NCBI GenBank assembly: GCA_964489065.1
Contig: CAZAXH010000001.1
Coordinates: 21,106-85,105 of the forward strand
Source of the DNA: an uncultured Planctomycetales bacterium
GTDB taxonomy: Bacteria; Omnitrophota; Gorgyraeia; Zapsychrales; JANLHA01
Direction of reading: 5' to 3'
Length of the DNA: 64,000 nt
How positions within the stretch are numbered: position 1 is the first letter of the stretch; each line of letters starts with the position of its first letter. Made by a program: the position numbers and the translations under genes. A model generated the notes under the pieces. That model worked only from the letters and a program-made list of their open reading frames with translations, was not told the DNA's origin and did no database searches. Below are positions 42,522 to 64,000 of this stretch, one piece after another.

Positions 42522-44021
42522 TTAACTCATCTCCGGGACTTGCTTGCGGATGCGGTAATAATAAAAATCTAACAGATAAAACTCGAACGGAAGCCGGTAA
42601 AAAAGCCAGCGCAGGCGCAGTTTGGAAATGATCGTCAAGAAGAGGAGCCACAACCCTTTAAAAGGGTTTTTCCGGATTTTCTCCCAGACAAAAGCATAGG
42701 TGTTGGTAGCGGCTTTTGTACTGGTCCACAAATACTTATTGAAGGTCATGTTCTTAATCCAGGGAGGTTCGGCGCCGCCTAAGATTTCGGCGTGCTCCCA
42801 TTCCTCCAGCGTCTCCGGCATCTTGAGGCCGTAATCGCGCACGCACATATCGTACAATTCTCCCCCCGGATACGGCCGGTAATTTGCCGGGCCGTTAATA
42901 AAAGCCCGGGGCTGAATCCGCAAAATCTCCCGGATGAGCCTTAACGTCTGCATCTGTTCAGCTTTCGTTTCGGTGGGAATGCCGGTCATAAACGCGACCA
43001 AAGGGATGATGTTGAATTTCTTGGTCCGCCGGACAAAATTCAAGATATCCTCAACCTTGATGCCTTTACGCAAAAGATCCAGGATCCGTTGGGACCCCGA
43101 TTCCCCCCCGCATTGCAGTTTGTTGCACCCCGAGTCAGCCAGCAGCTTAAGATAATCATCACCGACATAGGACTCCCGCAGATATTCAACCCGCGGATTA
43201 GCGAGCCAGGTAATGCGGATGTTACGGTCCAGCAGGCCCTGCGCGATCTCCCGGACCTGCTGCTTGTTCGACATAAACACTTCATCCCGGAACCCGACGC
43301 GCTGGATATTAAATTCCCGGAATAAGAATTCAATCTCGTTCAAAACGTTTACGGGGTCCCGGTAACGCATCTTCCGATTCTTGGTCAGCACGTTAATACA
43401 AAACGCGCAGCGGTACGGGCAGCCCCGGCTGGCCTGCACCCGGATAATACTCCGCTTGACGACAGACAGCACTTCGGGTTTAAGCATGGACCAGTCCAGG
43501 ATCGGAAGTTTATTCACATCAACAAACGGCCGGGCCGGCGTCGTGACGACGCCCCCGTTTTCCTTAAAGCAAATCCCATCCACCTTATGCAGATCAAGCG
43601 TGCCTGATTCGATCCGGCGGACGATATCCAGCATGACATCTTCCCCTTCCCCGGGGACAACGATATCCGCCAGCGGGCTCCGCGCGGTTTGCTCCGTGAA
43701 CAGAATTGCGTGAGGCCCCCCCCAGATAATCTTAACCCGAGGATTCTTTTGCCGAAGCCGCCGCAGTTCCGGCAGAAGGTAACGGATATGGACGCTCATC
43801 GCATACACGCCCAAAAGATCCGTATCGACAATTTCCCGGTCCAGGATATCCTGATATTCCGGCTCTACGGAACAATCCACCAGCTTAACCCTATATCCTT
43901 GCTGTTTAAGGACGGTCGCAATATAGAGAAGGCCGGTCGGAGTATTATAGGTGCCGATCGTGCCGGTCGGCGGGTAAATCAACAAGACCTTGACCGTATC
44001 TTTCTTAATCGCTGGCTTCAA
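42522..44021 (-). CDS. B12-binding domain radical SAM protein (class B radical SAM)
   Basis: N-terminal Rossmann-like cobalamin-binding region (VLLIYPP...IIWGGPHA), then a CxxxCxxC cluster ASRGCPYRCAFCIN and a radical SAM TIM-barrel core. 499 aa. Confidence 0.8.
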   Translation of the reverse strand: MKPAIKKDTVKVLLIYPPTGTIGTYNTPTGLLYIATVLKQQGYRVKLVDCSVEPEYQDILDREIVDTDLLGVYAMSVHIRYLLPELRRLRQKNPRVKIIWGGPHAILFTEQTARSPLADIVVPGEGEDVMLDIVRRIESGTLDLHKVDGICFKENGGVVTTPARPFVDVNKLPILDWSMLKPEVLSVVKRSIIRVQASRGCPYRCAFCINVLTKNRKMRYRDPVNVLNEIEFLFREFNIQRVGFRDEVFMSNKQQVREIAQGLLDRNIRITWLANPRVEYLRESYVGDDYLKLLADSGCNKLQCGGESGSQRILDLLRKGIKVEDILNFVRRTKKFNIIPLVAFMTGIPTETKAEQMQTLRLIREILRIQPRAFINGPANYRPYPGGELYDMCVRDYGLKMPETLEEWEHAEILGGAEPPWIKNMTFNKYLWTSTKAATNTYAFVWEKIRKNPFKGLWLLFLTIISKLRLRWLFYRLPFEFYLLDFYYYRIRKQVPEMS

Positions 44022-44037
44022 ACCTATCCCCTTTCCT

Positions 44038-45381
44038 TTATCGATACGGGGTCTCTTCGTATAAACGTAAACCCTTTATCTCCTTATACGCCGATCCATA
44101 CCGTTTCTTAAACTGCGCGAAAAAATCCTGGACCGCTTGGTCACGCAAGTAACGATATTTTTCATTATCCAAACAGCGGACGATCCGATATTCCCGGGAA
44201 CGGCACAGCCGACAGATGAGGTTGGGATGCGAGGAATTCACCGTCTCCCTTAAAAACTGAAACACTTTATGATTCCAAATATCGTTAAAATTGTTGTCAG
44301 GGTCAGAAAAAAACTCCTTATAATTGAGCAATAACGGCTCCAGCCGGTTGCAAACCGAAACATAATGGGAATCCGGATAATCCAACGCGCCTTTAAACTG
44401 GATCAGGCGCCAAGGTTGCAGGCAACAGCGGTCGCCTTCCGATGTTAAATGGTCCAAGTCAACCGCATTGACATCCTCCATGGCATGATAATAACATGGC
44501 TGGGAAGGAGTCAATGTGACATTCCGCTCCCGGGCATAATGATAAATCTCGTCCAGCAGGTGGTTCCCCTCGGCCGGATCAAAGTAATATGACACGTCAC
44601 GGCTTAATTTGTTCCTTACATCATAGTAACTATTAACCGAAACGTAATCCAATTTGTGTTCGCAAGCGAAGTCAATAATCCTGCGCGTATTGTGGGCGTT
44701 AAGCCGGTTCAACATAAAATTAATGCCCAACCGGTTTCTTCGGCCCTTACGGGTGGTATAATAACGGATATTAGCCACGACCCGGTCAAAATCCCCGCCC
44801 AACAGCTTCTTATACGTTTCCTTGTCCGCGGCGTGCAGCGAAACAAGAATATTATCGAACCCGCAACGGATCAAAGCGTCGGCCGTCTCCGGCACCAAAA
44901 AAAAACCGTTGGTGTTCACGCTCAAATTCAACTGTGGATATTTTTCTTTAAGAGAGCTGGCGATCTCAACAAAATGGGGATTGATCATCGGCTCCCCCAC
45001 AGACCCATAAAAGCTCAAACTCGACACATGGCGAATCCATGCTTCGTATTTCTTAATCATATCCAGATCAATGATGTTTTTATATTTGACCGGGATTTTT
45101 TCATGCACGTGGTGAATCTCGCAAAAGGCGCAACGGTAATTGCAGATATCGGTGAGATTCAAGACCCCCTGGGTGGGCATGCAACCCGTGCAAGCCGTCC
45201 CGCGGCAGGCATCACGGATCGCGTGAACGGTCTTGAGGGGCCCGGGGTAGAACTTCTCAAACAAAGACGCGGATTTATACAAAACCTCATGCCCCGCCAC
45301 ATAGGCCATGACCCTTTTTTTATTCTCCGGGGATATTGGCGAGGTAAACCCTAACATAATGATTTCTCCATCACCTGACAT
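44038..45381 (-). CDS. Radical SAM protein with Cys-rich C-terminal (SPASM/twitch-like) domain
   Basis: CNYRCAFCE CxxxCxxC motif, then the GSVGEPMINP glycine-rich SAM motif. C-terminal cysteines CCLQPW...CNRL...CRLCRS are consistent with an auxiliary Fe-S domain. Confidence 0.7.
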   Translation of the reverse strand: MSGDGEIIMLGFTSPISPENKKRVMAYVAGHEVLYKSASLFEKFYPGPLKTVHAIRDACRGTACTGCMPTQGVLNLTDICNYRCAFCEIHHVHEKIPVKYKNIIDLDMIKKYEAWIRHVSSLSFYGSVGEPMINPHFVEIASSLKEKYPQLNLSVNTNGFFLVPETADALIRCGFDNILVSLHAADKETYKKLLGGDFDRVVANIRYYTTRKGRRNRLGINFMLNRLNAHNTRRIIDFACEHKLDYVSVNSYYDVRNKLSRDVSYYFDPAEGNHLLDEIYHYARERNVTLTPSQPCYYHAMEDVNAVDLDHLTSEGDRCCLQPWRLIQFKGALDYPDSHYVSVCNRLEPLLLNYKEFFSDPDNNFNDIWNHKVFQFLRETVNSSHPNLICRLCRSREYRIVRCLDNEKYRYLRDQAVQDFFAQFKKRYGSAYKEIKGLRLYEETPYR

Positions 45382-46190
45382 CCGGCGGTAGGACCCCCGT
45401 CATCCAGCAGCAAGTCTTTTATGAACACGATATCCCGATCGGCGTAGGAGTTCAGCAAGGCCTTAAACCAAGGCACTCCGCCGCGGATAATATTCCAATC
45501 ATGAAAAAGGAAGACGTTGGGATCTCCCACATAAGTCAAGCCATTATTCTTTCTCCCCGTAGGGGATAACGCTTCAGTGGAGGATAGATATCGAAGCCCG
45601 GATTCGCAGGCGAACCGTTCTGTGTCCGCAGTCCACACGTTCCCCGGAGGGATAAAGGTCACCACCTCGCAGCCGAAATACTCTTTCAAATACCGCTGGG
45701 ACACCCGCAGATGGTCCCGGTGAGTTTCCGCCGGAAGCCAATCCCAGAACTCCCGATGAGCGAGACGGTTAGGCTCCCGCCAGCGCGGCCGGTGCTGTCC
45801 AACGACACAATGGGTCAGCCCGTGATTGGCGATCTCCAAGACCCCCTGTGCAACTCCTTGTTTCAAAACCGCGGCGGCTTCCGGAAACTTCTGAAAAAAA
45901 GGGACCAGTTCTCCGGAGTACTCTACCCACGCGGCAGTCACGCCGACGGTCAATTTCGCGTTATGGGACACCAGCAGCTTTATAATCTGCTCCCACTCTC
46001 CGGCCCTTAATTCCCGATAGGGCAGGCGCTTCCGTAAGCCCGGGCAATATTTCATCCATAAAAAATTTGATATCCGGGTCACCGGCCAAACGCGGCCCAG
46101 GAACTTAACGGTATCCTTCCCGTAAATTTCAAACTTTTTCGTGGAAGCAAAGACATCATCCATGCGTAAAGCTATGCGTTCTTTGGTCAT
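45351..46190 (-). CDS. Polysaccharide deacetylase-like (NodB/CE4 superfamily) protein
   Basis: LRMDDV (a TFDDG-like Asp-Asp motif) and ANHGLTHC (HxxxH-like). 279 aa. Assignment is tentative. Confidence 0.45.
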   Translation of the reverse strand: MTKERIALRMDDVFASTKKFEIYGKDTVKFLGRVWPVTRISNFLWMKYCPGLRKRLPYRELRAGEWEQIIKLLVSHNAKLTVGVTAAWVEYSGELVPFFQKFPEAAAVLKQGVAQGVLEIANHGLTHCVVGQHRPRWREPNRLAHREFWDWLPAETHRDHLRVSQRYLKEYFGCEVVTFIPPGNVWTADTERFACESGLRYLSSTEALSPTGRKNNGLTYVGDPNVFLFHDWNIIRGGVPWFKALLNSYADRDIVFIKDLLLDDGGPTAGCQVMEKSLC

Positions 46191-51276: not shown

Positions 51277-51999
51277 TCAATCCTCGGCCACATTAATAAA
51301 CTTTTCCATCTCCCGGGACTGCTGGCAGAGGGTGCGCAATTCTTCCGGCGTGGCGCTGCAGACGTGATCCGGCCCCACCAGCCCCTTATTAAGAGTAAAG
51401 TGCTTTTCGATAATCCTGGCACCCCGGGCCACGGCCACCAGAGCCGCCTCAATGCCGATCGTGTGATCGCTGAAGCCGTCGTAAGGAGTGGCTTTAAACG
51501 AAACCGGCAAATGAATATCCTTATACTCCGCGGGATATTTCGCCACGCAATAAAGGTATTTCGCTTTATCATAGGCGTAGGGGACATCATTATCCTCCCA
51601 GAAACCCAATGAAATAAAAACCTCTTTGCCGGTCGCGAATATTTTTTTACACAACTTTTTCTCCTGCACGGTGCGGCTCGCGATTTTATAACGTTTCACT
51701 TGCAGCCGCTCCATCCATTCAAAGCGATCTTCATCAAATACCGAAGCCATAAACTCGATGCCTTCTTCGTCACACCAGGTCTTAAGCCGCCGGGCGTCCT
51801 CAAACCCAAACTGCACGGTCAGGGCAAACCGGTAATTTTCCTCGTCCGGATAGCTCCCCTGCGGCCCGAAGATCTTCGCCGGGTCGTAAAACTGGAACTT
51901 GGCGACATCGGCCCCGCACTGTTTGGCCTGTTTGATCAACTCGTGGGCCAGATGAATACTGCCGTTATGGTTAATTCCAATTTCCGCGATGATAATCAT
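51277..51999 (-). CDS. NeuB-family (N-acetylneuraminate synthase-like) TIM-barrel protein lacking the C-terminal SAF domain
   Basis: MIIIAEIGINHNGSIHLAHELIKQAKQCGADVAKFQ is the NeuB/PseI N-terminal signature. At 240 aa it is ~100 aa shorter than full NeuB homologs. Confidence 0.7.
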   Translation of the reverse strand: MIIIAEIGINHNGSIHLAHELIKQAKQCGADVAKFQFYDPAKIFGPQGSYPDEENYRFALTVQFGFEDARRLKTWCDEEGIEFMASVFDEDRFEWMERLQVKRYKIASRTVQEKKLCKKIFATGKEVFISLGFWEDNDVPYAYDKAKYLYCVAKYPAEYKDIHLPVSFKATPYDGFSDHTIGIEAALVAVARGARIIEKHFTLNKGLVGPDHVCSATPEELRTLCQQSREMEKFINVAED

Positions 52000-52829: not shown

Positions 52830-54062
52830 TCACACGAGACGTTTATATTGGATTTCTTTCGCCTCAAAAAAATCCGTGGCTAACATATTCGTATTTAAAT
52901 CAATGTTCTTGCTGACCTTATGAATTTTAATATAATCCCCGGCTGACCGGACCTCAATGTGATTCCGAAAATATGCGTTCAGGTACCGGCACATCCCTGC
53001 CGGGTCATCTTCCCGTTTATAATTCACGAAATTTTTCCTGACACGATGCATGCCGTCAAAAAACCATTTATCAAAACCCAGCCAAGGGGGAAGAAACCCC
53101 CAAATCGGCTCTAGGGCTGTTCCGGAAAAAGGAATGTCCAGAACGTCATAAAGCTGGCGTGCTTCCAGTTTCGCCGAAAATTTTTCCAAAAACGTCCGGC
53201 TGACCAGATGCTGGCAGGAACAGCCGAACCACTCTAAATCATCATCTTCATGAAAAATAATTTTGTCTTTCTCTATAAATTCCGGGACGACTTTTTTCAA
53301 AGAACGCCGGTACGTGTTTTCATAAATGACCTTACCGGATATCGGGAACTCCCGCAAATGACGTAAAGAGCGCAGGCTCTGCCGCAGCCTTTTAAAAACC
53401 GGGTCAAAGACATCCGGGACATGATCCTGGGTGACAAAAGAACAATCCTGGCTCCAGGAAGAAAAAAGTCTTTTAAATTCCGGGTCCCGGCAGAAGACGT
53501 CGTAAACTTCCCTAATTCTCTCATTATGATAAAAATCCAGTTCGGTAGGGTCAGGGTCCCGTGTATTGTAGTTTAAGAAAAGCCCCCGGGAGATCCGCCG
53601 TTTTTCATGGCCGGACGACAGAAAATGGATCCCCTTCTCTTTTAAGAAAGCCAGCGCTGTAGATAAAACATTGGCGCGGGTTAAAAGGGTGCCTTCCTGG
53701 ATCATAAAAGTATAATCGTAGGCCCGCCATTTTCCCGTGCGGATGAATTTATACCACGCGCCGGAATCCAAGGCATGATCATTTTCAAAATGCATCTCCG
53801 TCACGGCTTTGCCTTTCACCTGCCGAAGAATATTTAAGACGCGATCATCCGCCGGGCTAAGCTGAACGTTAATGCCGTATTTTTCCGCCAGGCGGAAATA
53901 CGCCGCGTAAGATGTCTTCTTAAGACACTGGCCGTCCCCGTCTTGAAAAAGGGAAAAAATATCATAGTCCTGAAAATCCTGCAAAGCCAAAGTCAACAGC
54001 GTTGACATGATGAGCCAGGGTTTATGATGACAGCATAACGCTATGGCCACGCGTGCGCTCAT
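52830..54062 (-). CDS. Hypothetical protein (possible novel glycosyltransferase)
   Basis: I recognise no motifs. ATGA overlap with the upstream gene. The start is taken at MSARVAIAL. Confidence 0.4.
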   Translation of the reverse strand: MSARVAIALCCHHKPWLIMSTLLTLALQDFQDYDIFSLFQDGDGQCLKKTSYAAYFRLAEKYGINVQLSPADDRVLNILRQVKGKAVTEMHFENDHALDSGAWYKFIRTGKWRAYDYTFMIQEGTLLTRANVLSTALAFLKEKGIHFLSSGHEKRRISRGLFLNYNTRDPDPTELDFYHNERIREVYDVFCRDPEFKRLFSSWSQDCSFVTQDHVPDVFDPVFKRLRQSLRSLRHLREFPISGKVIYENTYRRSLKKVVPEFIEKDKIIFHEDDDLEWFGCSCQHLVSRTFLEKFSAKLEARQLYDVLDIPFSGTALEPIWGFLPPWLGFDKWFFDGMHRVRKNFVNYKREDDPAGMCRYLNAYFRNHIEVRSAGDYIKIHKVSKNIDLNTNMLATDFFEAKEIQYKRLV

Positions 54063-55417
54063 GCGGCCTGCCTCTCTTTCGATTTTTTCCGGACCGCGGT
54101 TTTCACCGCATCCCAGACGCGCCGGCTGCACAGGCCGTCGCCATACCCCATATAATTCCGGATAAATTCCTGATTCTTCTCTCGGTCCATCTCAAACCTC
54201 TTCAAATGCATTTGCGGAAGCCGCTCAATCACATCCTCAATCTCCCAGGTTTCGATCACCCCGGGATAATTAAACTGCGACCCTTCCTCGGCGGAAAACC
54301 AGAAACGATGCGCCTCGTTGATAAAAAATTCCTTAGGGACGTTAATATTCAGGCAATACACCCCCGCGTAAATAGCGGCCAAAGAGGCGAAACTGTAATA
54401 CATGACGCACATACGACTGACAGTCAGTAATTCTTTCAGCATGGGCGGATTCTGCCGTTTTTCATCATCCCAGACCACCAAATCGGCCTGTTCTTTGACA
54501 TAGTCCGCGACCGGGAATTTCATCCTCGGTTTCACCACAAGATACAGATTATTCCGGGAGCAAAACTGCCGGATCGATTCAAAAACTTTCGCTTCATTCA
54601 TGCCCCGCGCCAAAAACCGGCAGCTTAAGGGGTCCTGTATAATACGCAACAAATTCCAACTTTTTTGAACAAAATCTCTAATGATATAATTTTTTTTATC
54701 ATGCGCATACGAACCGTCCGCAGCCATCGCTGTATTTGCGTAAAGCCCGCAAAAGGCTCTCTCCCATGCGGAGGAACGGTTACGGTTGCAATACGGGAAC
54801 GGCAGATAAAGAAGGACACCTTTCCCTGATGGCAACCCGTATTTCACCCGCACGGCGTCCGGATCAATGGTTTTAAACGCGTCAAACTCCGCATTCCCGG
54901 AGACCAGAATACGGGTCTTATCCGGATAAAGATAGTCCGTATATTCCGGGTGAAAATTTTTCAGGAACGCCTCCCCTTTTTCCGCGTAACTCTCGCTGTG
55001 GACAAGAAAAAGTTCTTTATTCCGCCGTTTTTTCAAAAAACCCAATTTCGGTATATAAAAAAAGTTGTCCGGTCCCGTCATCAGCGTCACCCAGGTGAAA
55101 GGAAATTCATCTAAAGACGCATCCGGGAGAGAAAATTTAAAGGGACAAATAGAAACGACCACGTCAATATTTCTTCCCTCTCTTAGTTTCTTTTCCAAAT
55201 CCTCCGGCCCCTCGAAAACGATCCCCGGCGGCCGCCCCAATCCCGGGAATTCAGGGATATGCTCGGTATCCGGGAAAGAAAAACTTTTGCTCCCCAAACG
55301 GGGAACGCTGTAGTCGTGCCAGCATTCCACACCATAGCCCCGCCGCAACGCCTCCTGAATGACCGGCGTGTAATAACGGTAATAATTCGTCCTATAAACT
55401 AAAAATACGACCCGCAT
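54059..55417 (-). CDS. Hypothetical protein (GT-B-like / capsule-synthesis-like?)
   Basis: 452 aa, soluble. Weak resemblance to TagF/Capsule_synth-type two-domain transferases. No secure motif. Confidence 0.4.
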   Translation of the reverse strand: MRVVFLVYRTNYYRYYTPVIQEALRRGYGVECWHDYSVPRLGSKSFSFPDTEHIPEFPGLGRPPGIVFEGPEDLEKKLREGRNIDVVVSICPFKFSLPDASLDEFPFTWVTLMTGPDNFFYIPKLGFLKKRRNKELFLVHSESYAEKGEAFLKNFHPEYTDYLYPDKTRILVSGNAEFDAFKTIDPDAVRVKYGLPSGKGVLLYLPFPYCNRNRSSAWERAFCGLYANTAMAADGSYAHDKKNYIIRDFVQKSWNLLRIIQDPLSCRFLARGMNEAKVFESIRQFCSRNNLYLVVKPRMKFPVADYVKEQADLVVWDDEKRQNPPMLKELLTVSRMCVMYYSFASLAAIYAGVYCLNINVPKEFFINEAHRFWFSAEEGSQFNYPGVIETWEIEDVIERLPQMHLKRFEMDREKNQEFIRNYMGYGDGLCSRRVWDAVKTAVRKKSKERQAA

Positions 55418-56078
55418 GATCCCTCCACATGTTTTGTGCGATCAAAAAATCTTCTTCCGTATCAATATCAAACAACTCCAGTTTATCATTCAACTCCACC
55501 AGATGAACTTCCTGCCAGTCCCAGTAACGGCCGTGCTGAAAAAAATAGTCCTTGGGAAAAAAATACAAAGCGTGGGCGAACTCATAGACCGGCTCCACGG
55601 TCTTGGTATTGATCGTCTGAAGCGACAAAGAAAAATTCAAAGGGTTCCGCTTCATGTCGAAATAAAAATTATGGCGTTTCACGACGCCAAACGCCGATTC
55701 CCAATTATGGTCACAGCATTGTTCCAGGAAATCAGCAATGGTTTTGACTTTTAAGAAGGGCAAACACCCGTTGATAATCAAAAAATATTGATAAGGAAGC
55801 TCCTTTAAAAAAGACAAAATCTCCGTGATGGGGCCGTCGATCATCACCGACTCCCGGCTGCGCTGGACAAACGGCACGCCGTGCGCCCGGCATTTGTCCG
55901 CGAAATCCTGTTCGTACCCGGCGAAAAACGTGTTGTCCCCCAAGGCCCGCAGCTTTTTCAGCACGATATCGGTGAGGGTCGTGTCCCCGAACGGCCGGGT
56001 CATCTTTTGAGGACAGCGCTGGCTCTGTTTCCGGCCGAAGGAAAAGACCCCGATTGTTTGCCGCTCAACGCGCGCCAT
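55392..56078 (-). CDS. Cytidylyltransferase-family protein (acylneuraminate cytidylyltransferase-like)
   Basis: N-terminal IGVFSFGRKQSQRCPQKMTRPFGDTTL resembles the ArGGSKgipkKN.r.l.g.pL motif of CMP-sugar synthetases. 228 aa. Confidence 0.5.
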   Translation of the reverse strand: MARVERQTIGVFSFGRKQSQRCPQKMTRPFGDTTLTDIVLKKLRALGDNTFFAGYEQDFADKCRAHGVPFVQRSRESVMIDGPITEILSFLKELPYQYFLIINGCLPFLKVKTIADFLEQCCDHNWESAFGVVKRHNFYFDMKRNPLNFSLSLQTINTKTVEPVYEFAHALYFFPKDYFFQHGRYWDWQEVHLVELNDKLELFDIDTEEDFLIAQNMWRDHAGRIFSL

Positions 56079-57027
56079 TCAAAAACTCCTTGAAAGATAT
56101 GTTAGGAATTCCATCGACAGGCAAAGAATATTCAAACGGTTCATAAATATTGACAAAATTCATGCCCTGGTACTTCAGGACTTTTTCCAAAGCGGCAAAC
56201 TCATGCGGCGGCCTCATAAAAGGGCGCTTGTTTTCTTTAAAATTGCCGCTAAACGCCCGCCGCGCCTTTTTAAAAAATTTCCGGTAATGCGCCATGGATT
56301 TAAACGTATAACAGGCGGCATACTCCATACTGCCCAGCATGGACATGTCCATCCCGAGGAAAAACACGGTCCGGAACCCCAAAAAATTCAAAACCGGAAA
56401 AAGGGCGATCGCCGCGGAATTCAGGAAACTGTAGTCCTTGACCCGGGGGATATCCCCGCTCTCATCCAAAGTGAAGTAGTCCCCGAGATCGAACTCCGCG
56501 TCCGCAGGCCCGATCCCGCAGGTATAAACCGGATTGGCGCCGTGGAAGCTCTCCCGGTAAGCCAAAAAATTATCTCGAAAAGCCAAGCAGGCCGTTTCCG
56601 GGAACCGGGATAATAAGTCCAGCGGGGAATCACGCAAAAAGACTTCCGTCTTGTAACGAAACCGCTTGTGCACACCGCGTTCCGGCCGGAAATCCTCGAA
56701 GAACATCCGAAAATTCTCTTTCAGGAACTGGTACTCATCCTGGTATTCATCCCGTATGAGGCCGGTCAAATCAATATCCGCCAAAAACGACTGGAAGACC
56801 ACATGCTGAAACGCGTTGGATTTGCATTTTTCCAAATAAAACATAATATAAAAATCCGGCATTAAACCGGCCTTGATGAAATACGGCGTCAGGGCCTTGC
56901 TTTCCAAAAACACCGTATAACGCGCACGGTCCACCCGTTCCAAAGGCAGCTGGTTTTCAACGATCGAAGGCCCGCCGAAGAACATCAGCGCGTCGCGCCC
57001 CGCATAAGTATTTTTCAGCCGTTTCAT
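56065..57027 (-). CDS. DUF115 / MptE-like (Maf, motility-accessory-factor-type) putative nonulosonate transferase
   Basis: GRDALMFFGGPS, the GxGPS motif near the N-terminus that defines DUF115/6-hydroxymethylpterin-diphosphokinase MptE-like proteins. Confidence 0.55.
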   Translation of the reverse strand: MKRLKNTYAGRDALMFFGGPSIVENQLPLERVDRARYTVFLESKALTPYFIKAGLMPDFYIMFYLEKCKSNAFQHVVFQSFLADIDLTGLIRDEYQDEYQFLKENFRMFFEDFRPERGVHKRFRYKTEVFLRDSPLDLLSRFPETACLAFRDNFLAYRESFHGANPVYTCGIGPADAEFDLGDYFTLDESGDIPRVKDYSFLNSAAIALFPVLNFLGFRTVFFLGMDMSMLGSMEYAACYTFKSMAHYRKFFKKARRAFSGNFKENKRPFMRPPHEFAALEKVLKYQGMNFVNIYEPFEYSLPVDGIPNISFKEFLNGAR

Positions 57028-58076
57028 GACGCAGCAATCAACTCCTTTGCCAAAGGGGTGCCGCGGCGGATATCCTTCACGGCCCTGCGCCCCAAAATCT
57101 TGTCCAGGGCTTTCGGCGGCAGCCCATAGCCCGGGCGGATCGACCGGACATTATCCGGCGTTAAACGCTCCCCGCGTTTAATATCCTGAACGGCAAAAAG
57201 AGAGCGGCGGAACACCCGGCTCTTTTTTTCCCTGTTGGTTTTCATATACGTCGCTGTCCCCAGCGCCTGTTCCGTGATCCGGATATTCTCCACCAGCATT
57301 TTAAACTCCCCCGGCTCGGTGGAAAAAAAACTGTCCGGTGTTTTGTGTTTCCGGGTCAAAGTAAAATGTTTTTCGATCATAACCGCGCCCAGGCACACCG
57401 CGGCCACTGACGCGGCCAAAGTCAGCGTGTGGTCCGAGAGCCCCACCGGGACTTTAAACCGCCTGGCCATGTCCGGGAGGACCTTCAAATTCATCTCCTG
57501 CGGTTGCGCCGGATAATTGCTGACGCATTTAAGTAAAAGAAGATCGCGACTGCCTGCCCGGCGGGCGGCCGCGACCGCATCCTCAATCTCTTCTCTCTCC
57601 GCCATCCCCGTTGACAAGATAAGCGGTTTACCGGTCCGGGCGGCGTACGCGATCAAAGGGATATCCACCAGCTCAAAAGAAGCGATCTTGTGCACCGGGA
57701 CAGCGAGCGTTTCCAGAAAATCAACGGAGGAAGCGTCAAAAGCGGTGACAAAAAACCCGAGGCCGAGGTCATCCGCCACCGTTTTCAATCTTTTAAGCCA
57801 GGACCAGGGGGTATACGCTTTCTGATAAAGCTGATACAGGGTCTGTCCGCCCCATTCCGGATGATGCACGCGAAAATATTTATTACGGGCATCGAGCGTC
57901 ATAGTGTCGGGAGTGTACGCCTGAAACTTCACCGCGTCCGCCCCGCATTCTTTTGCCTTGCGGATCATGGCCGCCGCGCGGGTAAAACTCTGCCCGTGGT
58001 TCGCGGAAATCTCCGCTACGATATACACCGGACATTGGTCTCCCACCAGTCTGTTCCCAATCTTAAACGGTTTCAT
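57024..58076 (-). CDS. pseI: Pseudaminic acid synthase / N-acetylneuraminate synthase family (full length with SAF domain)
   Basis: KIGNRLVGDQCPVYIVAEISANHGQS, and C-terminal SAF/antifreeze-like region RRSLFAVQDIKRGERLTPDNVRSIRPGYGL. 350 aa. Confidence 0.8.
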   Translation of the reverse strand: MKPFKIGNRLVGDQCPVYIVAEISANHGQSFTRAAAMIRKAKECGADAVKFQAYTPDTMTLDARNKYFRVHHPEWGGQTLYQLYQKAYTPWSWLKRLKTVADDLGLGFFVTAFDASSVDFLETLAVPVHKIASFELVDIPLIAYAARTGKPLILSTGMAEREEIEDAVAAARRAGSRDLLLLKCVSNYPAQPQEMNLKVLPDMARRFKVPVGLSDHTLTLAASVAAVCLGAVMIEKHFTLTRKHKTPDSFFSTEPGEFKMLVENIRITEQALGTATYMKTNREKKSRVFRRSLFAVQDIKRGERLTPDNVRSIRPGYGLPPKALDKILGRRAVKDIRRGTPLAKELIAAS

Positions 58077-58088
58077 CTCATTTCCCTT

Positions 58089-58550
58089 TTAGAAATCCCC
58101 ATCATAAGCATACGTTACCACCTCTTTGTCCTCGGAAAAACACCGGTACCCGGCTTTCCTGAATGCTTTGACAGACGCCTCGTTCCTTTTGATAATCCTG
58201 GCGATAACCGTGACCGCCCCGATCTCCTTCAAAAACTGTTCTGTCCCGGCCCGGATGACCCGGGATCCCAGCCCCTGCCCCAGACAGGCGGGATTGAGAT
58301 GAACGCTCACCTGCGCGCCCTGCCCCTCCGGCTCAAAACGGATGACCCCGACTTTTTCTTCCCCCCGGCGGGCGATGTAAATCCGGCAACGGGAATCGGA
58401 CATTTTCTGTTCAAACCACCGCTGATGTTCATCCCAGGGGACCACGGCGGTGTTAAAAAAGTTTTTACGGACGTCCGGGTGATTACGCCACTCCCAGATA
58501 TCCCGCATGTCCTCTTCCCAAGCCAAAGATATAACAATGTCTTCCTTCAT
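58089..58550 (-). CDS. pseH: GNAT N-acetyltransferase, PseH-like (UDP-4-amino-4,6-dideoxy-N-acetyl-beta-L-altrosamine N-acetyltransferase)
   Basis: Small GNAT (..VGVIRFE...LGQGLGSRVI..). Its position between pseI and an LmbE deacetylase in a pse cluster supports the call. The start is taken at MKEDIV (58550). Confidence 0.6.
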   Translation of the reverse strand: MKEDIVISLAWEEDMRDIWEWRNHPDVRKNFFNTAVVPWDEHQRWFEQKMSDSRCRIYIARRGEEKVGVIRFEPEGQGAQVSVHLNPACLGQGLGSRVIRAGTEQFLKEIGAVTVIARIIKRNEASVKAFRKAGYRCFSEDKEVVTYAYDGDF

Positions 58551-59227
58551 CGGACCGCCCTCACCACCTGAAAAGCTTCCGCGTACATGCATCCAGAAAC
58601 GCTTCCCCACCGCTGCGCGATGGCCAACAAACTCTTTACAGAACGGGGATGCGGCGCCGGCCGCATTTCCGATCGGTAACACCGCATCGCTTTTATTTTC
58701 TGCATAATAGTCCTCTCGACATCCATGTAAAGCGTCGGGTCAAAACTCCGGGGATACGCCCACTCCGAAGAAGACGGGACTTCGAATGCGTAAATGTCCC
58801 TGACCGGCTCTCCCTTCAGGGGCCGGCAGGCGGTCATCACCGCGTTATACGTGATACGGTGGTCAATGTTCAAATCTCCCCAATGATGCGTAAAAACCGT
58901 GTCGGGCCGGACCCGCCGTTTGATCTCTTCCAGACGCTGGACAATCCCCAAAAGGGAAACCGTGTCCAGTTTGTTGTCAGGAAGGTCGAGCTGATGCACA
59001 TCCTTCACGCCTAAGACCTGGTTGGCGGCCGTCATCTGCTCTTTCAATTTTTTCTTTTCCCGGGCCTGTTTCGCGGAAGCGCCGTCGCTGTAACGCGCGG
59101 TCACGCCTTCCCCCAGAATGACCGTGGTCACGCCATGCCCTTCTTGAACGAGCCGGGCGACCGCCGCCCCGCAGCCCAGCACCTCATCATCCGGGTGAGC
59201 CGCAACGACCAAGATTTTCTTTTTCAT
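58547..59227 (-). CDS. PIG-L/LmbE-family N-deacetylase
   Basis: ILVVAAHPDDEVLGCGAAVARL is the LmbE HPDDE zinc-binding motif. Confidence 0.8.
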   Translation of the reverse strand: MKKKILVVAAHPDDEVLGCGAAVARLVQEGHGVTTVILGEGVTARYSDGASAKQAREKKKLKEQMTAANQVLGVKDVHQLDLPDNKLDTVSLLGIVQRLEEIKRRVRPDTVFTHHWGDLNIDHRITYNAVMTACRPLKGEPVRDIYAFEVPSSSEWAYPRSFDPTLYMDVERTIMQKIKAMRCYRSEMRPAPHPRSVKSLLAIAQRWGSVSGCMYAEAFQVVRAVR

Positions 59228-59919
59228 GCCGCCTCCTTTAGGCCTATTTCGACCCGTGCGGTCAGCCGCCGGCCTTTCTTCTCCGCCGCAAAGAATTCAA
59301 ACCGCAACGCCCTGGTTTCCAGAAAAGCCCGGGGGTAACCTTCTGCGTCCAGCATGCGGATCCTATCATAGGCTTCCGGCACGGACGCCACCGGGATAAG
59401 GCTGCTTTCTTCCGGCGTCCTCCGGCGAAAAACGACCGCCTTGCCCTTCTGGGGCCGAAGGCGTATCTTGCCGCGGATAATTGCCGGCATCATACTGCCA
59501 AAAATAACAGCCGTGGCCCGCCGGTAAATTTCCTCGGCCGATCCCCGCAAACACAGCGCGCGCTTCAGATACACCGGCCCGGCGTCGAACTTTTCCGTAA
59601 CCCGGATCGCGGTGATTTTTGTCGACCGGTGTCCCCGGACAATCAGATTCTGCAAAGGGCTCCCTCCCCGTCCGTACGGCAAGTCTGTCATATGAAACGC
59701 GACGCACGGATACGCCGCATAAATATCCCGGGGGATCTTCCAGGACCAATGCGGGAAAAATATAAAATCCGGGTTGAACATTTTGACCGACGCGAGGCAT
59801 AAGTGCTCCCGGCCTGAAATCAAACGCATGGAAACGTCCGGGTTGTGTCTCCGGAAATTCCGTGCCGCTTCAATATTCCAACTTTTAACCGTCGCGATGA
59901 TAATCTTTTTCTTTTTCAT
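59224..59919 (-). CDS. Formyltransferase-family protein (Fmt N-terminal-domain-like)
   Basis: 231 aa. Formyl-transferase fold pattern (...FFPHWSWKIP..., HMTDLPYGRGGSPL). Commonly found in nonulosonate clusters. Confidence 0.55.
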   Translation of the reverse strand: MKKKKIIIATVKSWNIEAARNFRRHNPDVSMRLISGREHLCLASVKMFNPDFIFFPHWSWKIPRDIYAAYPCVAFHMTDLPYGRGGSPLQNLIVRGHRSTKITAIRVTEKFDAGPVYLKRALCLRGSAEEIYRRATAVIFGSMMPAIIRGKIRLRPQKGKAVVFRRRTPEESSLIPVASVPEAYDRIRMLDAEGYPRAFLETRALRFEFFAAEKKGRRLTARVEIGLKEAA

Positions 59920-59928
59920 GGAGCCTCG

Positions 59929-60080
59929 CGCCCACGGGCGTGTTGCCTATTAACAATTCGCTTCGCGGAATCATCCGGCTTCTTAACACACGTGCCGTCC
60001 CCGAAAGAGAAGACCTTATTAACCTTTCGCTTTCATCCCCGGGCATACCCCCGGTCTTCGGCGAAGAGGGATGAAAACTA
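59929..60080. repeat. Copy B of the ~150-nt repeated leader element (first copy at 33081-33240)
   Basis: Aligns to 33081-33240 at about 72% identity, including the shared block gaccttattaacct. Here it is fully intergenic, between the pseG stop (60078) and the formyltransferase start (59919). Confidence 0.6.
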
Positions 60081-61091
60081 CCGAAACTGCATCGCCCTCT
60101 TGTTAACCACCGCGTCCACGATCCGGAACGCGCCCTGGCCGTCCACGCAGGCTTGCCCGGCAGCGGCTAACCTTTGACGCGGCGCTTTATCTTTATGCTT
60201 TCTTAAAGCCTCCCGCAACCGGGCGGACACGCCGGGATCACCGATTCTACCGCAATCCTCAATAACGCCCTTATGCTTTAACCCGCGGATGTTCGCGGCC
60301 TGATTATCCGCCACACACACCGCCAAGGCCGGGACCCCGCACCGGGCCAATTCATACAAAGTCTGTCCACCCGCCGAAACCGCCAGATCCGCTTCCAGCA
60401 TGCGGGCCTTCATCTGTTGGGCATCCAGGGCCGCGATAAACTCGGTCTGCCCGTCCGCCTGTCCAAAAAAATCGGCGGCAGGCGCACAACCGTGTCCTAA
60501 AACAACCGTCTTCCTGGCAGAAGGATACTCCGCTTTGACCGTCTGATAACAAAGCGGCGTAGCCTGTTTCATATCGCTGCCGCCCAGCGTCAACAAAATA
60601 TGCCCGACACTTTCGCTAACAGACCTTGGGGGGACGTCCCAGAACACCAAGCGTAAAGGCACATAACCTTCCCCCAGCAAATAAACAGTCCCTTCCCGGG
60701 CTGGGTATGAAAACTGTTCCGGATAGGCCGCGGCGTTGACGACAAACCCGGACGGATAAGATAACCGCTCATAGTCATCCAGGAAAACAGCGACACGCAC
60801 GGCTTCCGACACCGTGCGGTAAACAGCTTCCGGCGCCCAATAGGAATCGATCACAACCACATCCGGCTCCGCGGCGGCCAGAAGCCTGCCCAAATGATTG
60901 CCTTCGAACCAGCATCCCACATCACTGTTCATGCCCTTCGTGAACGCTGCCACCGACCCATCACCGTTAATGACCAGGTGCGGGGTAAAATTCCTGGACG
61001 CAAAAGCCTGGTATAAAGCCGCACACCGGGCGATATGCCCGAACCCGAACTGCGCTCCCCCTTCCGTGAGGATCAAAACTTCGCTCTTCAT
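60078..61091 (-). CDS. pseG: UDP-2,4-diacetamido-2,4,6-trideoxy-beta-L-altropyranose hydrolase (PseG, GT28-like)
   Basis: MKSEVLILTEGGAQFGFGHIARCAALYQAF is the PseG N-terminal pattern. C-terminal GT-B domain. 337 aa. Confidence 0.75.
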   Translation of the reverse strand: MKSEVLILTEGGAQFGFGHIARCAALYQAFASRNFTPHLVINGDGSVAAFTKGMNSDVGCWFEGNHLGRLLAAAEPDVVVIDSYWAPEAVYRTVSEAVRVAVFLDDYERLSYPSGFVVNAAAYPEQFSYPAREGTVYLLGEGYVPLRLVFWDVPPRSVSESVGHILLTLGGSDMKQATPLCYQTVKAEYPSARKTVVLGHGCAPAADFFGQADGQTEFIAALDAQQMKARMLEADLAVSAGGQTLYELARCGVPALAVCVADNQAANIRGLKHKGVIEDCGRIGDPGVSARLREALRKHKDKAPRQRLAAAGQACVDGQGAFRIVDAVVNKRAMQFR

Positions 61092-61823
61092 TTATGGCGT
61101 CCTGGCCTCGCCGGCCATTTGATATTTCATGTAAAACTCTGCTTTCAGGAAATCCTGTTCATAATCAATTTCAGTGGCATAACGCTCGTCATGAACGAGA
61201 AGAGTCACCCGCTCTCCCATATAGGCGTGCACTTTTAAAACTCCGGCCGCCGCCAGCAATGTCTCTCTCTTTAAAACGATAACGGCCCCGTCCAATAAAT
61301 ACAGCGGGGGCAGATCCTGCATGCGGTAAGCGTGCGCCGACGGCATAAAAGGACGGACCAACCCGCTCTCGGGATCCAAGATTTTCATCCATTCCGGCCG
61401 CTGGCCAATTGTGTACGCAGTGGCCACGGCGGTGAAATCAGGGTGGGCCAGCAGTTTTTCCACCGCCTCATCAATCTCCCCCTCCTTGCGGATGGGAACA
61501 TTCGCCTGCAGGGCCACAACAACGTCAAAAATTTTTCCTGTCGCCTTTTCTTGCACTTGTAAGGCATGACGAAGAGCATCGTCGAACGGGGACGTGTCCC
61601 GGGCCAATTCCGCCGGCCGCATCACGACCGCCGCGCCACACTTTTGCGCGACCGCCGCAATCTGATCATTATCGGTGGATACAACCACCTTGTCACAAAG
61701 ACAGCTCTTGAGCGCCATCTCGACCGCATACGCCATAAGCGGCTTGCCGCAAAGGGGCCGCACATTCTTCATCGGCGCGCGTTGGCTGCCGCCCCGGGCG
61801 GGGATCACGCAAAGCACATTCAT
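61092..61823 (-). CDS. pseF: Pseudaminic acid cytidylyltransferase / CMP-nonulosonate synthetase family
   Basis: VIPARGGSQRAPMKNVRPLCGKPLMAYAV is the CMP-NeuAc synthetase-family N-terminal motif. The start is taken at MNVLCV (61823). Confidence 0.8.
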   Translation of the reverse strand: MNVLCVIPARGGSQRAPMKNVRPLCGKPLMAYAVEMALKSCLCDKVVVSTDNDQIAAVAQKCGAAVVMRPAELARDTSPFDDALRHALQVQEKATGKIFDVVVALQANVPIRKEGEIDEAVEKLLAHPDFTAVATAYTIGQRPEWMKILDPESGLVRPFMPSAHAYRMQDLPPLYLLDGAVIVLKRETLLAAAGVLKVHAYMGERVTLLVHDERYATEIDYEQDFLKAEFYMKYQMAGEARTP

Positions 61824-63190
61824 GAGCTCACCTGTTCGCAATGCTTCGTTTTATTCCATGCCCCCAACTCCGCGATCATTTCTTCCTGCGCGGCATAAAG
61901 CTGGGCATCCGACAAATCGGAAAAGTTAACCCGGATCTGTTCACCCTGTTCACCCAGGTTCAGGACATACTCCTCTTCATCCAGGATCTTACCCTGTGCC
62001 ATCGCCAGACGGTAAAGCTCCGTTCCCGGATAGGGGGTCGCAAAGAAAACAACTTCCGGAGCCAATTGAAGATCTTTACAGAAATCAACCGTCTCCCGGA
62101 TCGTTTCATGATTTTCTCCGGGGAGGCCGATCATAAAAGAACAGTCCGCCCATCCCATATGTTTCTGAGTCAGCCGGACAGCGGCTTTGGCGTCCTCAAC
62201 CCGTACCCCTTTCTTCATCACGTCCAGCATCCGCTGGCTCCCGGATTCTATGCCGTAGCAAAGCAATACGCAGCCCGCTTCCGCCATGGCTGCAATTAAA
62301 GATTCCGTCATAAGATTAACCCGCCCCGTACACCCCCACGTAACAGTTCCGCGAAACGTCCGGGTCATCAGGGCGCAGAAGTCCGCCACAAATTTTTTGT
62401 TCAGACAAAACTCGTCATCGATAAAATGGACGTACGGAACCCCGTAACGGCTCCTCAAATATTTTATCTCCTCAACAACATTCTCCGGAGAGCGGTGCCG
62501 GTACCCGTGCCCCATAAAATCGTGATAACAATAAATACATTGATACGGGCAGCCGCGGGTGGCGCTGATGTTCATGGAAAGGCCACCTGCGTCCTCTCCC
62601 CGGCCGTCACTCCATTTATGGCGGTTCGGAGCCCCGACAGGGTTTTTTAGATAAATATCCATCGGAAAAAGATCCCAGGCCGGGAAGGGGATTTCATCTA
62701 AATTTTTAATCGGCGGCCGTGCGGGGTTTTTCCGGATATTCCCGTCCGCCTCTCTAAACCATATTCCCGCCACCGTCCTTAGATCCCTCCTCCCTTCAAG
62801 CGCTGACAAAAGATCCACAAACGTTTCTTCCCCCTCCCCGATACAAACAATATCCGCCGGAGTATTACCCATGATGATATGCGGGATGGAGGTCCCGACA
62901 CTCCCCCCGACCATGATTTTTTTATCCGGCGCCGTGCTTTTAAGGAACTCGATCAGCCATTTGACATATTTATACACCGTAACGATCGCGCCGATACCGA
63001 CGGCATCAAATTCCGCCGCCCGGAGCTTTTCCTGAACGGTCTGACGGTCCCAACGGAAAGCGTTGATATCCATCACCTCCACCTCATGGCCGGCGTTTCT
63101 GGCGACCGCGGCTAAATACCCCAGCCCCAAGGGCAGGACATTAGGCCGGGACCATTCACGGATCGGAGGGTTGATTAATAATATTTTCAT
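61820..63190 (-). CDS. B12-binding domain radical SAM protein (class B)
   Basis: MKILLINPP...IMVGGSVGTS (B12-binding). CxxxCxxC ATRGCPYQCIYCYH and a radical SAM core. 456 aa. ATGA overlap with pseF. Confidence 0.8.
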   Translation of the reverse strand: MKILLINPPIREWSRPNVLPLGLGYLAAVARNAGHEVEVMDINAFRWDRQTVQEKLRAAEFDAVGIGAIVTVYKYVKWLIEFLKSTAPDKKIMVGGSVGTSIPHIIMGNTPADIVCIGEGEETFVDLLSALEGRRDLRTVAGIWFREADGNIRKNPARPPIKNLDEIPFPAWDLFPMDIYLKNPVGAPNRHKWSDGRGEDAGGLSMNISATRGCPYQCIYCYHDFMGHGYRHRSPENVVEEIKYLRSRYGVPYVHFIDDEFCLNKKFVADFCALMTRTFRGTVTWGCTGRVNLMTESLIAAMAEAGCVLLCYGIESGSQRMLDVMKKGVRVEDAKAAVRLTQKHMGWADCSFMIGLPGENHETIRETVDFCKDLQLAPEVVFFATPYPGTELYRLAMAQGKILDEEEYVLNLGEQGEQIRVNFSDLSDAQLYAAQEEMIAELGAWNKTKHCEQVSS

Positions 63191-64000
63191 GACACCGCCT
63201 CGATTAACATCCCCACAATCTGCCGCACGTCGCGTTTACGCAATTGGGGGTAAAGCGGCAGGGTCATCGCCCGTTTGTAATACCGTTCCGCCAACGGAAA
63301 CTGCCCGCGTTTATACCCAAAACGCTTCTGATAATACGGCTGAAGATGAATCGGGATATAATGAACCTGCGGGGAGACCCCCTTCCCCAGCAACGCCTGA
63401 AACGTCCGGTTTCTCAACGCGGCGTCTTTGAATTGAATCACAAAAATATGCCATGCGGCTTTCACGTCTTTCTTTTCCGCCGGGAGGATAAAACGCGGAT
63501 CCCGAGCCAATAAAGCGCGATACGTTTCCACGTGTCCCCTTCTCTGGGCGATGAACAGGTCCAGTTTCTTCATCTGGGACACCCCCAGCGCGCACTGCAG
63601 GTCGGTGATCCGGTAATTATATCCCAGCACCGGCATCTCGTAATACCACGGGCCGTCATTCCTGGTCAACAAATGCGGGGTTTTCGTTATCCCGTGCGTG
63701 CGGAAAATTTGCAGCCGCTCGTAAAGGTCTTTCCGGTTCGTCAGGACGGCCCCGCCCTCGCCGGTCGTGATGTTTTTGACCGGGTGAAAACTGAACACCG
63801 TCATATCCGCATACGCGCCGCCGCCGACCTTTTTCCCGCGGTATTCCGCCCCCAGGGCGTGACAGGCGTCCTCGATCACCAGCAGCTTGCGCTTCCGGGC
63901 GATACGCCGGATCGCCGCCATATCTGCAGGGTGCCCGGCGAAATGCACCGGGATCAGCGCTTTGGTCCTGGGGCTGATCTTTTTTTCAATCTCCGCAGGA
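63187..64000 (-). CDS. pseC: DegT/DnrJ/EryC1/StrS-family PLP aminotransferase (PseC-like), C-terminal portion; N-terminus beyond window end
   Basis: Minus-strand frame is open to the window edge (..PAEIEKKISPRPKALIPVHFAGHPADM..). The Schiff-base region FSFHPVKNITTGEGGAV matches the DegT family. Confidence 0.8.
   Translation of the reverse strand, partial: PAEIEKKISPRTKALIPVHFAGHPADMAAIRRIARKRKLLVIEDACHALGAEYRGKKVGGGAYADMTVFSFHPVKNITTGEGGAVLTNRKDLYERLQIFRTHGITKTPHLLTRNDGPWYYEMPVLGYNYRITDLQCALGVSQMKKLDLFIAQRRGHVETYRALLARDPRFILPAEKKDVKAAWHIFVIQFKDAALRNRTFQALLGKGVSPQVHYIPIHLQPYYQKRFGYKRGQFPLAERYYKRAMTLPLYPQLRKRDVRQIVGMLIEAVS

Follow-up and report, generated by a model that had tools for sequence, protein, structure and literature searches.

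The stretch of DNA analysed here (hereafter the window) comprises 64,000 nucleotides of contig CAZAXH010000001.1 (assembly GCA_964489065.1, positions 21,106 to 85,105) from an uncultured bacterium placed by GTDB in the Omnitrophota. Its right-hand end, 57024-64000 on the minus strand, holds a predicted pseudaminic acid (Pse) operon in which a gene for a B12-binding-domain (class B) radical S-adenosylmethionine (SAM) protein of 456 amino acids, hereafter rSAM456, is embedded. Nonulosonic acids such as sialic, legionaminic and pseudaminic acid are capping sugars of bacterial surfaces, flagella and S-layers, where they shape immune and phage recognition, and their described diversity consists of stereochemistry and of N- and O-substituents. 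Our analysis revealed that rSAM456 is a conserved part of pse operons across at least ten phyla, and we know of no radical, cobalamin-dependent or skeleton-altering enzyme that acts on nonulosonic acids.

In the order of transcription, the region 57024-64000 encodes the following proteins, all on the minus strand and none with an internal stop. The C-terminal 270 codons of PseC (63187-64000), the uridine diphosphate (UDP)-4-keto-6-deoxy-L-AltNAc 4-aminotransferase, are cut by the window edge; the fragment belongs to the DegT_DnrJ_EryC1 family and matched TIGR03588 at E = 2e-99. It is followed by rSAM456 (61820-63190), a PseF-like cytidine monophosphate (CMP)-nonulosonate synthetase of 243 amino acids with a CTP_transf_3 domain (61092-61823), and a PseG-like UDP-sugar hydrolase of 337 amino acids with a weak Glyco_tran_28_C match (60078-61091). 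Downstream of these are a formyltransferase-like (FT-like) protein of 231 amino acids (59224-59919), a PIG-L/LmbE-family zinc N-deacetylase of 226 amino acids (58547-59227), a PseH-like GNAT N-acetyltransferase of 153 amino acids with an Acetyltransf_3 domain (58089-58550) and the pseudaminic acid synthase PseI, 350 amino acids with NeuB and SAF domains (57024-58076). Overlaps of four nucleotides of the ATGA type join pseC to rSAM456, rSAM456 to pseF, the FT-like gene to the LmbE gene, the LmbE gene to pseH, and pseI to orf320, while pseF and pseG abut with no spacer. The sole real intergenic gap of the block measures 158 bp (59920-60077) and lies between pseG and the FT-like gene; a scan of 56000-64000 for promoters and terminators gave counts no different from those of shuffled sequence, and this gap contained no such site. 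Two starts were corrected: pseF begins at the ATG at 61823, not at the TTG at 61841, and PseH has 153 amino acids, the 197-amino-acid open reading frame (ORF) of the mechanical list beginning too early.

The original prediction, made from the sequence alone, had described a co-directional, translationally coupled block of pseC, pseF, pseG, pseH and pseI homologs, with a radical SAM gene that overlaps both pseC and pseF by ATGA, and the genes were indeed found at or near the positions it gave. It had also presumed that pseB lies past the window edge. A Logan assembly of identical sequence (L001), which extends past the right edge of the window, bore this out: its upstream part contains a gene for a GDP-fucose-synthase-like epimerase, pseB (L001:1052-2035; TIGR03589, 494.3 bits, cut-off 407.75), a second B12-binding radical SAM gene of 481 codons situated between pseB and pseC (L001:2051-3496), and the 5' part of pseC. 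The full-length pseC spans L001:3499-4656 and reaches 504.5 bits with TIGR03588 (cut-off 423.5).

Based on profile comparisons, the backbone of the pathway can be assigned with good confidence to the Pse type, because PseB, PseC and PseI pass equivalog thresholds; all three exceed the NCBIfam cut-offs and outscore the legionaminic acid (Leg) and sialic acid (Neu) models. For full-length PseC, the LegC model reaches only 262 bits against 504.5 for the PseC model, and PseI scores 455.9 bits with TIGR03586 (cut-off 340.25) as opposed to 300.8 bits with NeuB_NnaB, which is under the cut-off of 399.65. PseF (TIGR03584, 130 against a cut-off of 206 bits), PseG (TIGR03590, 121 against 154) and PseH (TIGR03585, the sole NCBIfam match, 75 against 93) each match the Pse model best yet stay under its cut-off, and judged by these scores we regard them as divergent; their position and order agree with characterised operons. 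The possibility, raised with the original prediction, that the enzymes belong to a different sugar pathway is answered for PseC and PseI by the equivalog cut-offs. All six steps of the canonical pathway of Helicobacter pylori and Campylobacter jejuni (PseB, PseC, PseH, PseG, PseI and PseF) have a homologue in this operon. It differs from the canonical pathway in its three to four added interleaved genes (rSAM456, the FT-like gene and the PIG-L gene, plus the 481-codon B12-radical SAM gene outside the window) and in its location in a polysaccharide/O-antigen-type island instead of a flagellar locus.

In the protein database, proteins that share about 64% identity or more with rSAM456 form at least 134 clusters when grouped at 90% identity. 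Their named members come from Omnitrophota, Thermodesulfovibrionales/Nitrospirota, Planctomycetota, Phycisphaerae, Cloacimonetes and Margulisbacteria, with one record labelled Altiarchaeales. Gene neighbourhoods were compared with one genome per GTDB species; 27 loci were returned, the window proteins were mapped onto them, and all ORFs were clustered. In all 25 GTDB loci with an rSAM456 of at least 60% identity, pseB and/or pseC lie directly upstream. Two extra loci obtained by exact-protein look-up, a contig whose protein bears an Altiarchaeales label at NCBI and a Cloacimonetes contig, fit the same rule, which brings the count to 27 of 27. Hosts of the GTDB loci belong to Omnitrophota, Nitrospirota, Thermodesulfobacteriota, Planctomycetota, Margulisiibacteriota, Elusimicrobiota and Actinomycetota, and include a Dehalococcoidaceae (Chloroflexota) metagenome-assembled genome (MAG) and a Vogelbacteria MAG of the Candidate Phyla Radiation (CPR). 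When median identities to the window copy were compared across loci, rSAM456 was the best-conserved gene of the block (65%), followed by PseB (59%), PseC (54%), PseI (52%), PseF (44%), PseH (38%) and PseG (33%). The closest genome is an Omnitrophota MAG (L026) whose rSAM456 is 91% identical and whose gene order is kept, without the 481-codon radical SAM gene.

Two gene arrangements were observed. In context A, which comprises 15 loci including the one described here, rSAM456 is followed by pseF, pseG, pseH (often fused to pseG) and pseI. In context B (10 loci), rSAM456 is followed by genes for a GFO/IDH/MocA oxidoreductase, an SpsF-like cytidylyltransferase and a class III aminotransferase, and then by pseG and pseI; context B thus represents a distinct, uncharacterised form of a Pse-like pathway. 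Four of the context B loci (L004, L009, L019 and L033) encode a PseC with a fused N-terminal SDR/RmlD-like domain, 716-732 amino acids in total, and their class III aminotransferase is GSA-aminomutase-like. A Thermoplasmatota locus (L031) carries the complete context B gene set without rSAM456, which makes rSAM456 an optional addition to a pathway that works without it. As a consequence, the downstream enzymes must accept both modified and unmodified substrate. Such dual acceptance is compatible with a minor change, for instance an added methyl group, but not with loss of an amine or a hydroxyl. The rSAM456 orthogroup is sharply bounded near 60% identity, because a 54%-identical homologue (L025:10001-11356), the only full-context locus at that level, has no pse genes nearby. 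It is flanked by genes for an MMPL transporter and a LolA-like protein on one side and for an esterase and a TPR protein on the other, with BNR/sialidase-like and GH3 genes nearby, and this homologue may be a paralogue with a different role. None of the 45%-identical representatives carried an annotation.

The rSAM456 protein combines a PF02310 B12-binding domain (63.4 bits, cut-off 32.1) with a PF04055 Radical_SAM domain (91 bits). The cysteines of its CX3CX2C motif (C214, C218 and C221) are invariant across 39 homologues, as are about 130 other positions. An AlphaFold2 model (predicted local distance difference test score 87.8, predicted TM-score 0.88) shows a beta/alpha domain at about residues 1-132. 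Foldseek comparison of this model with the PDB gave as best matches TsrM, MgmA (9CCB), AprD4, OxsB, CysS and TokK with E values from 1e-16 to 1e-24 and 15-23% identity, TsrM, MgmA, AprD4, OxsB and CysS all falling at about 1e-22 to 1e-24. On the basis of the predicted structure, we consider the fold class settled as the class B radical SAM architecture. Cobalamin is a putative cofactor, and the N-terminal domain aligns in sequence with the cobalamin-binding domains of TsrM, CysS and OxsB. The sequence match to MgmA lies mostly in the radical SAM half, with a marginal second stretch at residues 93-163. No NCBIfam equivalog cut-off was reached by rSAM456; the top model was HpnJ (192 against 578 bits), then BchE (181 against 481), ApyD, PhpK and MgmA, and neither hopanoid nor bacteriochlorophyll genes were present in the gene context of rSAM456.

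Among characterised class B radical SAM enzymes, methyltransferases are in the majority; they include GenK and GenD1, which C-methylate sugars, and Fom3, whose substrate is CMP-activated. With GenK, GenD1, Fom3, TsrM, MgmA, CysS and TokK, rSAM456 shares a Rossmann-type B12-binding domain and a radical SAM barrel with the CX3CX2C motif. Like Fom3, it is located beside a cytidylyltransferase in a sugar pathway. It differs from the solved members of the class B C-methyltransferases by its low identity to them (15-23%) and by its substrate, predicted to be either a nonulosonate or a 2,4-diamino-2,4,6-trideoxyhexose.

An exhaustive search of 1.84 billion representatives revealed that a large clade of 38-47% identical proteins surrounds rSAM456. 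One relative (P0336) is a fusion of a B12-radical SAM protein with NeuB and SAF domains, and another (P0313) joins a Maf N-terminal domain to a B12-radical SAM protein. Through the NeuB and Maf fusions, the wider clade is linked to the metabolism of nonulosonic acids by evidence other than gene order. Further fused relatives carry GT9, GT1 or Epimerase_2/Glyphos_transf domains, and other unusual forms are tandem double B12-radical SAM modules of about 1000 amino acids and one intein-containing copy. Relatives of unusual form (P0336, P0313, P0260, P0264 and P0288) are 32-46% identical to rSAM456.

The islands contain other B12-radical SAM genes, namely the 481-codon gene, a gene at 42522-44021 of the window, a 564-codon gene (L027) and the c33 family of about 680 amino acids. 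Their products are at most 30% identical to rSAM456 and constitute separate families. The 481-amino-acid protein is 28% identical to rSAM456; its gene is missing in L026, where the gap between pseB and pseC measures about 220 bp, and it looks like a strain-specific extra tailoring step. At 42522-45381 (minus strand), a 447-codon radical SAM gene of the non-B12 type is immediately followed by a B12-radical SAM gene of 499 codons, whose product shares 30% identity with rSAM456; the 447-codon gene itself comes after a gene for a polysaccharide deacetylase-like protein (45351-46190). In L032, a Pse-type cluster from Planctomycetes, the slot directly after pseC is occupied by a SPASM-type radical SAM gene of 329 codons (L032:5231-6220), followed by a methyltransferase gene, which suggests that radical chemistry was recruited independently at the post-PseC point of the pathway.

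The second set of added genes encodes the FT-like protein, the PIG-L/LmbE protein and the GNAT protein. The FT-like protein belongs to the 1ZGH / PF21553 family (Formyl_trans_C_2, 60 bits; weak Formyl_trans_N, 27.8 bits), matches PDB entry 1ZGH, its nearest solved homologue, over its full length at E = 1.5e-68, and has at least 7969 family members at E <= 1e-10 among 8000 candidates scored. Canonical formyltransferases carry the motif N-x-H-x-SLLP followed by D, with a catalytic Asn-His-Asp triad. In the FT-like motif VAFHMTDLPYGRGGSP (VAFHMTDLP), the His and the Asp (within FDAGPV) are kept and Ala stands at the position of the catalytic Asn, so that the triad of the N10-formyl-tetrahydrofolate sugar N-formyltransferases of the ArnA/WlaRD/VioF type is incomplete; the ArnA model reaches 47 bits against a cut-off of 777. 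The sequence FHMTDLPxGRGGSPLQNLI is shared with 1ZGH, and Ala or Val replaces the canonical Asn in both proteins. 1ZGH is a structural-genomics entry from Clostridium thermocellum, annotated as 'methionyl-tRNA formyltransferase'. Formyl transfer is not certain, because the canonical Asn is missing, and we propose that the FT-like protein is an N-formyl or other N-acyl transferase outside the canonical formyltransferases. The real acyl donor of the 1ZGH-like family, with Ala or Val for Asn, is of interest in itself. The PIG-L/LmbE protein (PF02585, 96.8 bits, cut-off 28.2) has the metal-ligand motifs AAHPDDE and HHWGDLNIDH; its top NCBIfam match is BshB1, under cut-off, and the nearest solved structures are TT1542 and diacetylchitobiose deacetylase. 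It is proposed to remove the N-acetyl group derived from UDP-N-acetylglucosamine (UDP-GlcNAc). Such a step is plausible: UDP-GlcNAc is the source of the N-acetyl group at hexose C2 (N5 of Pse), which has to be lost before a different acyl group is attached.

The trio of FT-like, PIG-L and GNAT genes was also found in L026, L030, L031 and L032, and all three distant FT-like members picked at random, from Lachnospiraceae, Thermoplasmatota and Planctomycetes, lie in Pse-type clusters beside PIG-L and GNAT genes. The trio is a common module that has already been proposed in the literature and is not unusual. S-layer glycans of Ca. Kuenenia stuttgartiensis contain 'PseFm' (C10H16N2O6, 260.10 Da), whose amine is unmasked, together with its +CH2 and +2xCH2 variants (10.1101/2020.12.03.409086). 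The SugarBase preprint of 2026 describes the matching CMP-nonulosonic acids in Kuenenia, which carry one N-formyl group and one free amine each, and links them to deacetylase and formyltransferase genes within a cluster of the Leg type (10.64898/2026.04.20.719630). The embedding of these two genes among nonulosonate genes resembles the operon described here, and the products are those expected of an FT and LmbE module; the Kuenenia cluster differs in being described as Leg-type (legB/legC/legF/legG) and with no mention of a radical SAM gene. The N-formylation that had been predicted from the formyltransferase gene has a precedent in the Kuenenia deacetylase and formyltransferase, and is weakened by the missing Asn.

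The operon is embedded in a single co-directional surface-glycan island of roughly 50 kb, which extends from 17.3 kb to the end of the window and about 5 kb beyond its edge; all sizeable ORFs from about 17.3 kb to the window end lie on the minus strand, and the region described here constitutes the 5' half of the island. The island encodes an initiating sugar transferase (Bac_transf), a WecG-type transferase, a UDP-GlcNAc 2-epimerase, a GDP-mannose dehydratase and an AsnB-like amidotransferase, and it also contains many glycosyl- and methyltransferases, an ABC exporter and two more radical SAM genes. The flanks carry pgk, tpi, an opp transporter and SMC. Three membrane proteins resembling Wzy_C/O-antigen ligases are encoded at 17371-18852, 19902-21341 and 35682-37256 (minus strand), which is unusually many for a single locus, and a YfhO-like protein is encoded at 33173-35650. 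Directly downstream of pseI lies orf320 (56065-57027, minus strand), a possible Maf/MptE-like nonulosonate transferase with a weak match (E = 0.0034, 17.6 bits, under cut-off). It overlaps by 14 nucleotides a second, divergent nucleotidyl/cytidylyltransferase-like gene of 228 codons (55392-56078, minus strand; NTP_transf_3, 32 bits; CTP_transf_3, 24.6 bits). The coupled genes orf320, orf452 and orf410 (52830-57027, minus strand) matched no Pfam family even at relaxed thresholds, apart from the weak MptE-like match of orf320, and their conservation is limited to L026, the relative with 91% identity; we regard the three as candidates for nonulosonate transfer. A second NeuB-family synthase of 240 amino acids, without a SAF domain, is encoded at 51277-51999 (minus strand) and reaches 190 bits with NeuB_NnaB and 139 bits with PseI, both under cut-off. 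Together with the divergent cytidylyltransferase (55392-56078), it may form a second ulosonic acid branch of the operon.

We read the region as a complete Pse route (PseB-PseC-PseH-PseG-PseI-PseF) that would be decorated by two add-on modules. In the first, the [4Fe-4S] cluster of rSAM456 would cleave SAM to a 5'-deoxyadenosyl radical, which would abstract a hydrogen from an unactivated carbon of an intermediate at the stage of UDP-4-amino-4,6-dideoxy-L-AltNAc, or of CMP-Pse, and the resulting substrate radical would then be methylated by methylcobalamin. This would yield a C-methylated form of Pse, its skeleton extended to ten carbons, that is still accepted by the ordinary downstream enzymes. 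In the second module, the FT-like, PIG-L and GNAT proteins would strip the N-acetyl group derived from UDP-GlcNAc and either re-acylate the amine, probably with formyl, or leave it free. On balance, we lean towards rSAM456 being a cobalamin-dependent radical C-methyltransferase of a Pse-pathway intermediate, with the second module re-acylating; the gene identities, the operon, its synteny, the fold class and the fusions are observed, and the substrate, the methyl-transfer chemistry, the position of the methyl group and the use of cobalamin are the parts of this reading that we infer. C-methylation is favoured because of the prior of the class B family, the genuine-looking B12 domain and the optional insertion, and because acylation genes for the 4-amino group have been kept and a vicinal diol and a partner reductase are lacking.

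Several points weigh against this reading. No C-methylated Pse structure proven by nuclear magnetic resonance is known to us, and we found no experiment on, or characterised orthologue of, rSAM456. Its top NCBIfam matches, HpnJ and BchE, are non-methylases, although far under cut-off, and the highest TM-score belongs to AprD4 (0.74 both ways, at equal length). The fold cannot tell a methylase from a lyase, because AprD4 matches as well as the methylases, and cobalamin binding by rSAM456 is putative. The target could also be an N-acyl group instead of the skeleton, and for the second module, the replaced Asn of the FT-like protein counts in the same direction. The +14 Da variants of the Kuenenia nonulosonic acids were read by their authors as O-methylation, and the described cluster is without a radical SAM gene (10.64898/2026.04.20.719630). 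We had considered the +CH2 variants of Ca. Kuenenia as support for methylation and dropped them, given that cluster and a search seeded with a Brocadiaceae orthologue, which gave no Kuenenia-named protein. Of the C-methylation suggested by the original prediction, the class B fold has stood; the chemistry comes from family priors, and AprD4 fits the fold equally.

One alternative keeps the Pse-pathway sugar as the substrate and assigns to rSAM456 a non-methylating chemistry of the AprD4, DesII or HpnJ type (dehydration, deamination, epimerisation or rearrangement), which would lead to a deoxygenated or stereochemically different nonulosonic acid. We consider this rather unlikely. AprD4, a radical SAM 1,2-diol dehydratase of apramycin biosynthesis, has a B12-like N-terminal domain without cobalamin and needs a vicinal diol and the partner reductase AprD3. 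It is the top structural match by TM-score and the second-best PDB sequence match, and itself acts on an amino sugar. However, the sequence match is limited to the radical SAM half (residues 207-404), the AprD4 model NF033070 reaches 94.2 bits against a cut-off of 500 at residues 207-430 only, and the N-terminal domain of rSAM456 aligns with the real cobalamin domains of TsrM, CysS and OxsB. In addition, the Pse intermediates are without a vicinal diol, and no partner reductase was found beside rSAM456 in context A operons; an AprD4-like dehydratase was down-weighted for these reasons. The succession of a DegT-family aminotransferase and a radical SAM enzyme recalls DesI and DesII, but deamination would take the amine that is used by the retained PseH, ATP-grasp or amidotransferase genes. 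Retention in the clusters of PseH or another N-acylating enzyme implies that the 4-amino group is not removed, and DesII-like deamination after the aminotransferase was likewise down-weighted. HpnJ, the top NCBIfam match, rearranges a glucosamine moiety, and the different, SPASM-type radical SAM gene in the slot after pseC of L032 is consistent with a non-methylating step; the optional insertion of rSAM456 into otherwise identical clusters argues instead for a change that is tolerated downstream.

A second alternative, in our view decidedly unlikely, is that rSAM456 is a cobalamin-dependent methylase of an N-acyl substituent (for instance acetyl to propionyl) or of another position outside the skeleton, so that the nine-carbon skeleton is kept. 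Class B enzymes such as ThnK/TokK and CysS build up small alkyl groups one step at a time, the structural matches include CysS and TokK, and Pse and Leg derivatives differ chiefly in their N-acyl groups. The several distinct B12-radical SAM paralogues that share the islands are also consistent with multiple small alkylations. Nevertheless, the slot right after PseC, often upstream of acyltransferases, weakly suggests a common skeleton target, and so does, again weakly, the occurrence of rSAM456 alongside N-acyl modules as dissimilar as acetyl, acetamidino and ATP-grasp. It is also conceivable, but very improbable, that rSAM456 is unrelated to Pse, that its target is some other part of the island, be it a different sugar, a lipid or a protein, and that it is only carried along with pseB and pseC. 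The island is rich in other sugar genes and holds two further radical SAM genes. This explanation has to contend with the adjacency to pseB/pseC in 27 of 27 loci from at least ten phyla, the rest of whose islands are wholly different, with the translational coupling on both sides of rSAM456, and with the relatives fused to NeuB and to the Maf N-terminal domain.

CMP-ulosonic acids with a backbone one carbon longer have been reported in Magnetospirillum gryphiswaldense (1,2-diamino-4,5-methylenedioxybenzene marker at m/z 311.10 against 297.09), and no enzyme was proposed (10.64898/2026.04.20.719630). Returning to C-methylation by rSAM456, we put forward tentatively, as possible and with less confidence than the methyltransferase assignment itself, that nonulosonic acid biosynthesis has in rSAM456 its first cobalamin-dependent radical SAM enzyme, and that this enzyme adds a skeleton carbon, giving C10 ulosonic acids like those of M. 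gryphiswaldense. A full-text literature search, judged from titles, abstract openings and counts, gave no paper that links a radical SAM enzyme to nonulosonic acid synthesis; co-mentions with 'pseudaminic acid' or 'legionaminic' were few and never in a title or abstract. This agrees with the original prediction, to which no such step was known. Its description of the locus as a Pse-type pathway with extra tailoring genes holds for the gene identities and for the PseB, PseC and PseI equivalogs; the formyltransferase and deacetylase genes that it singled out are not unusual, being part of a common module. It is the radical SAM component that makes this a new form of the Pse pathway, and a widespread one; the FT/deacetylase component is ordinary.

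The rSAM456 gene is a concrete candidate for the C-alkylated or C10 ulosonic acids that have been seen by mass spectrometry without a genetic explanation, and with six known enzymes and one unknown, the system is directly testable. If C-methylation is correct, the substrate range of cobalamin-dependent radical SAM enzymes would be wider, and the extra B12-radical SAM paralogues of the islands would carry out further C-alkylations. There would also be a need for cobalamin in the synthesis of surface glycans in very small genomes, those of CPR and possibly DPANN. C-alkylated sugars resembling sialic acids would then be widespread on uncultivated anaerobes, including CPR bacteria and possibly DPANN-type archaea.

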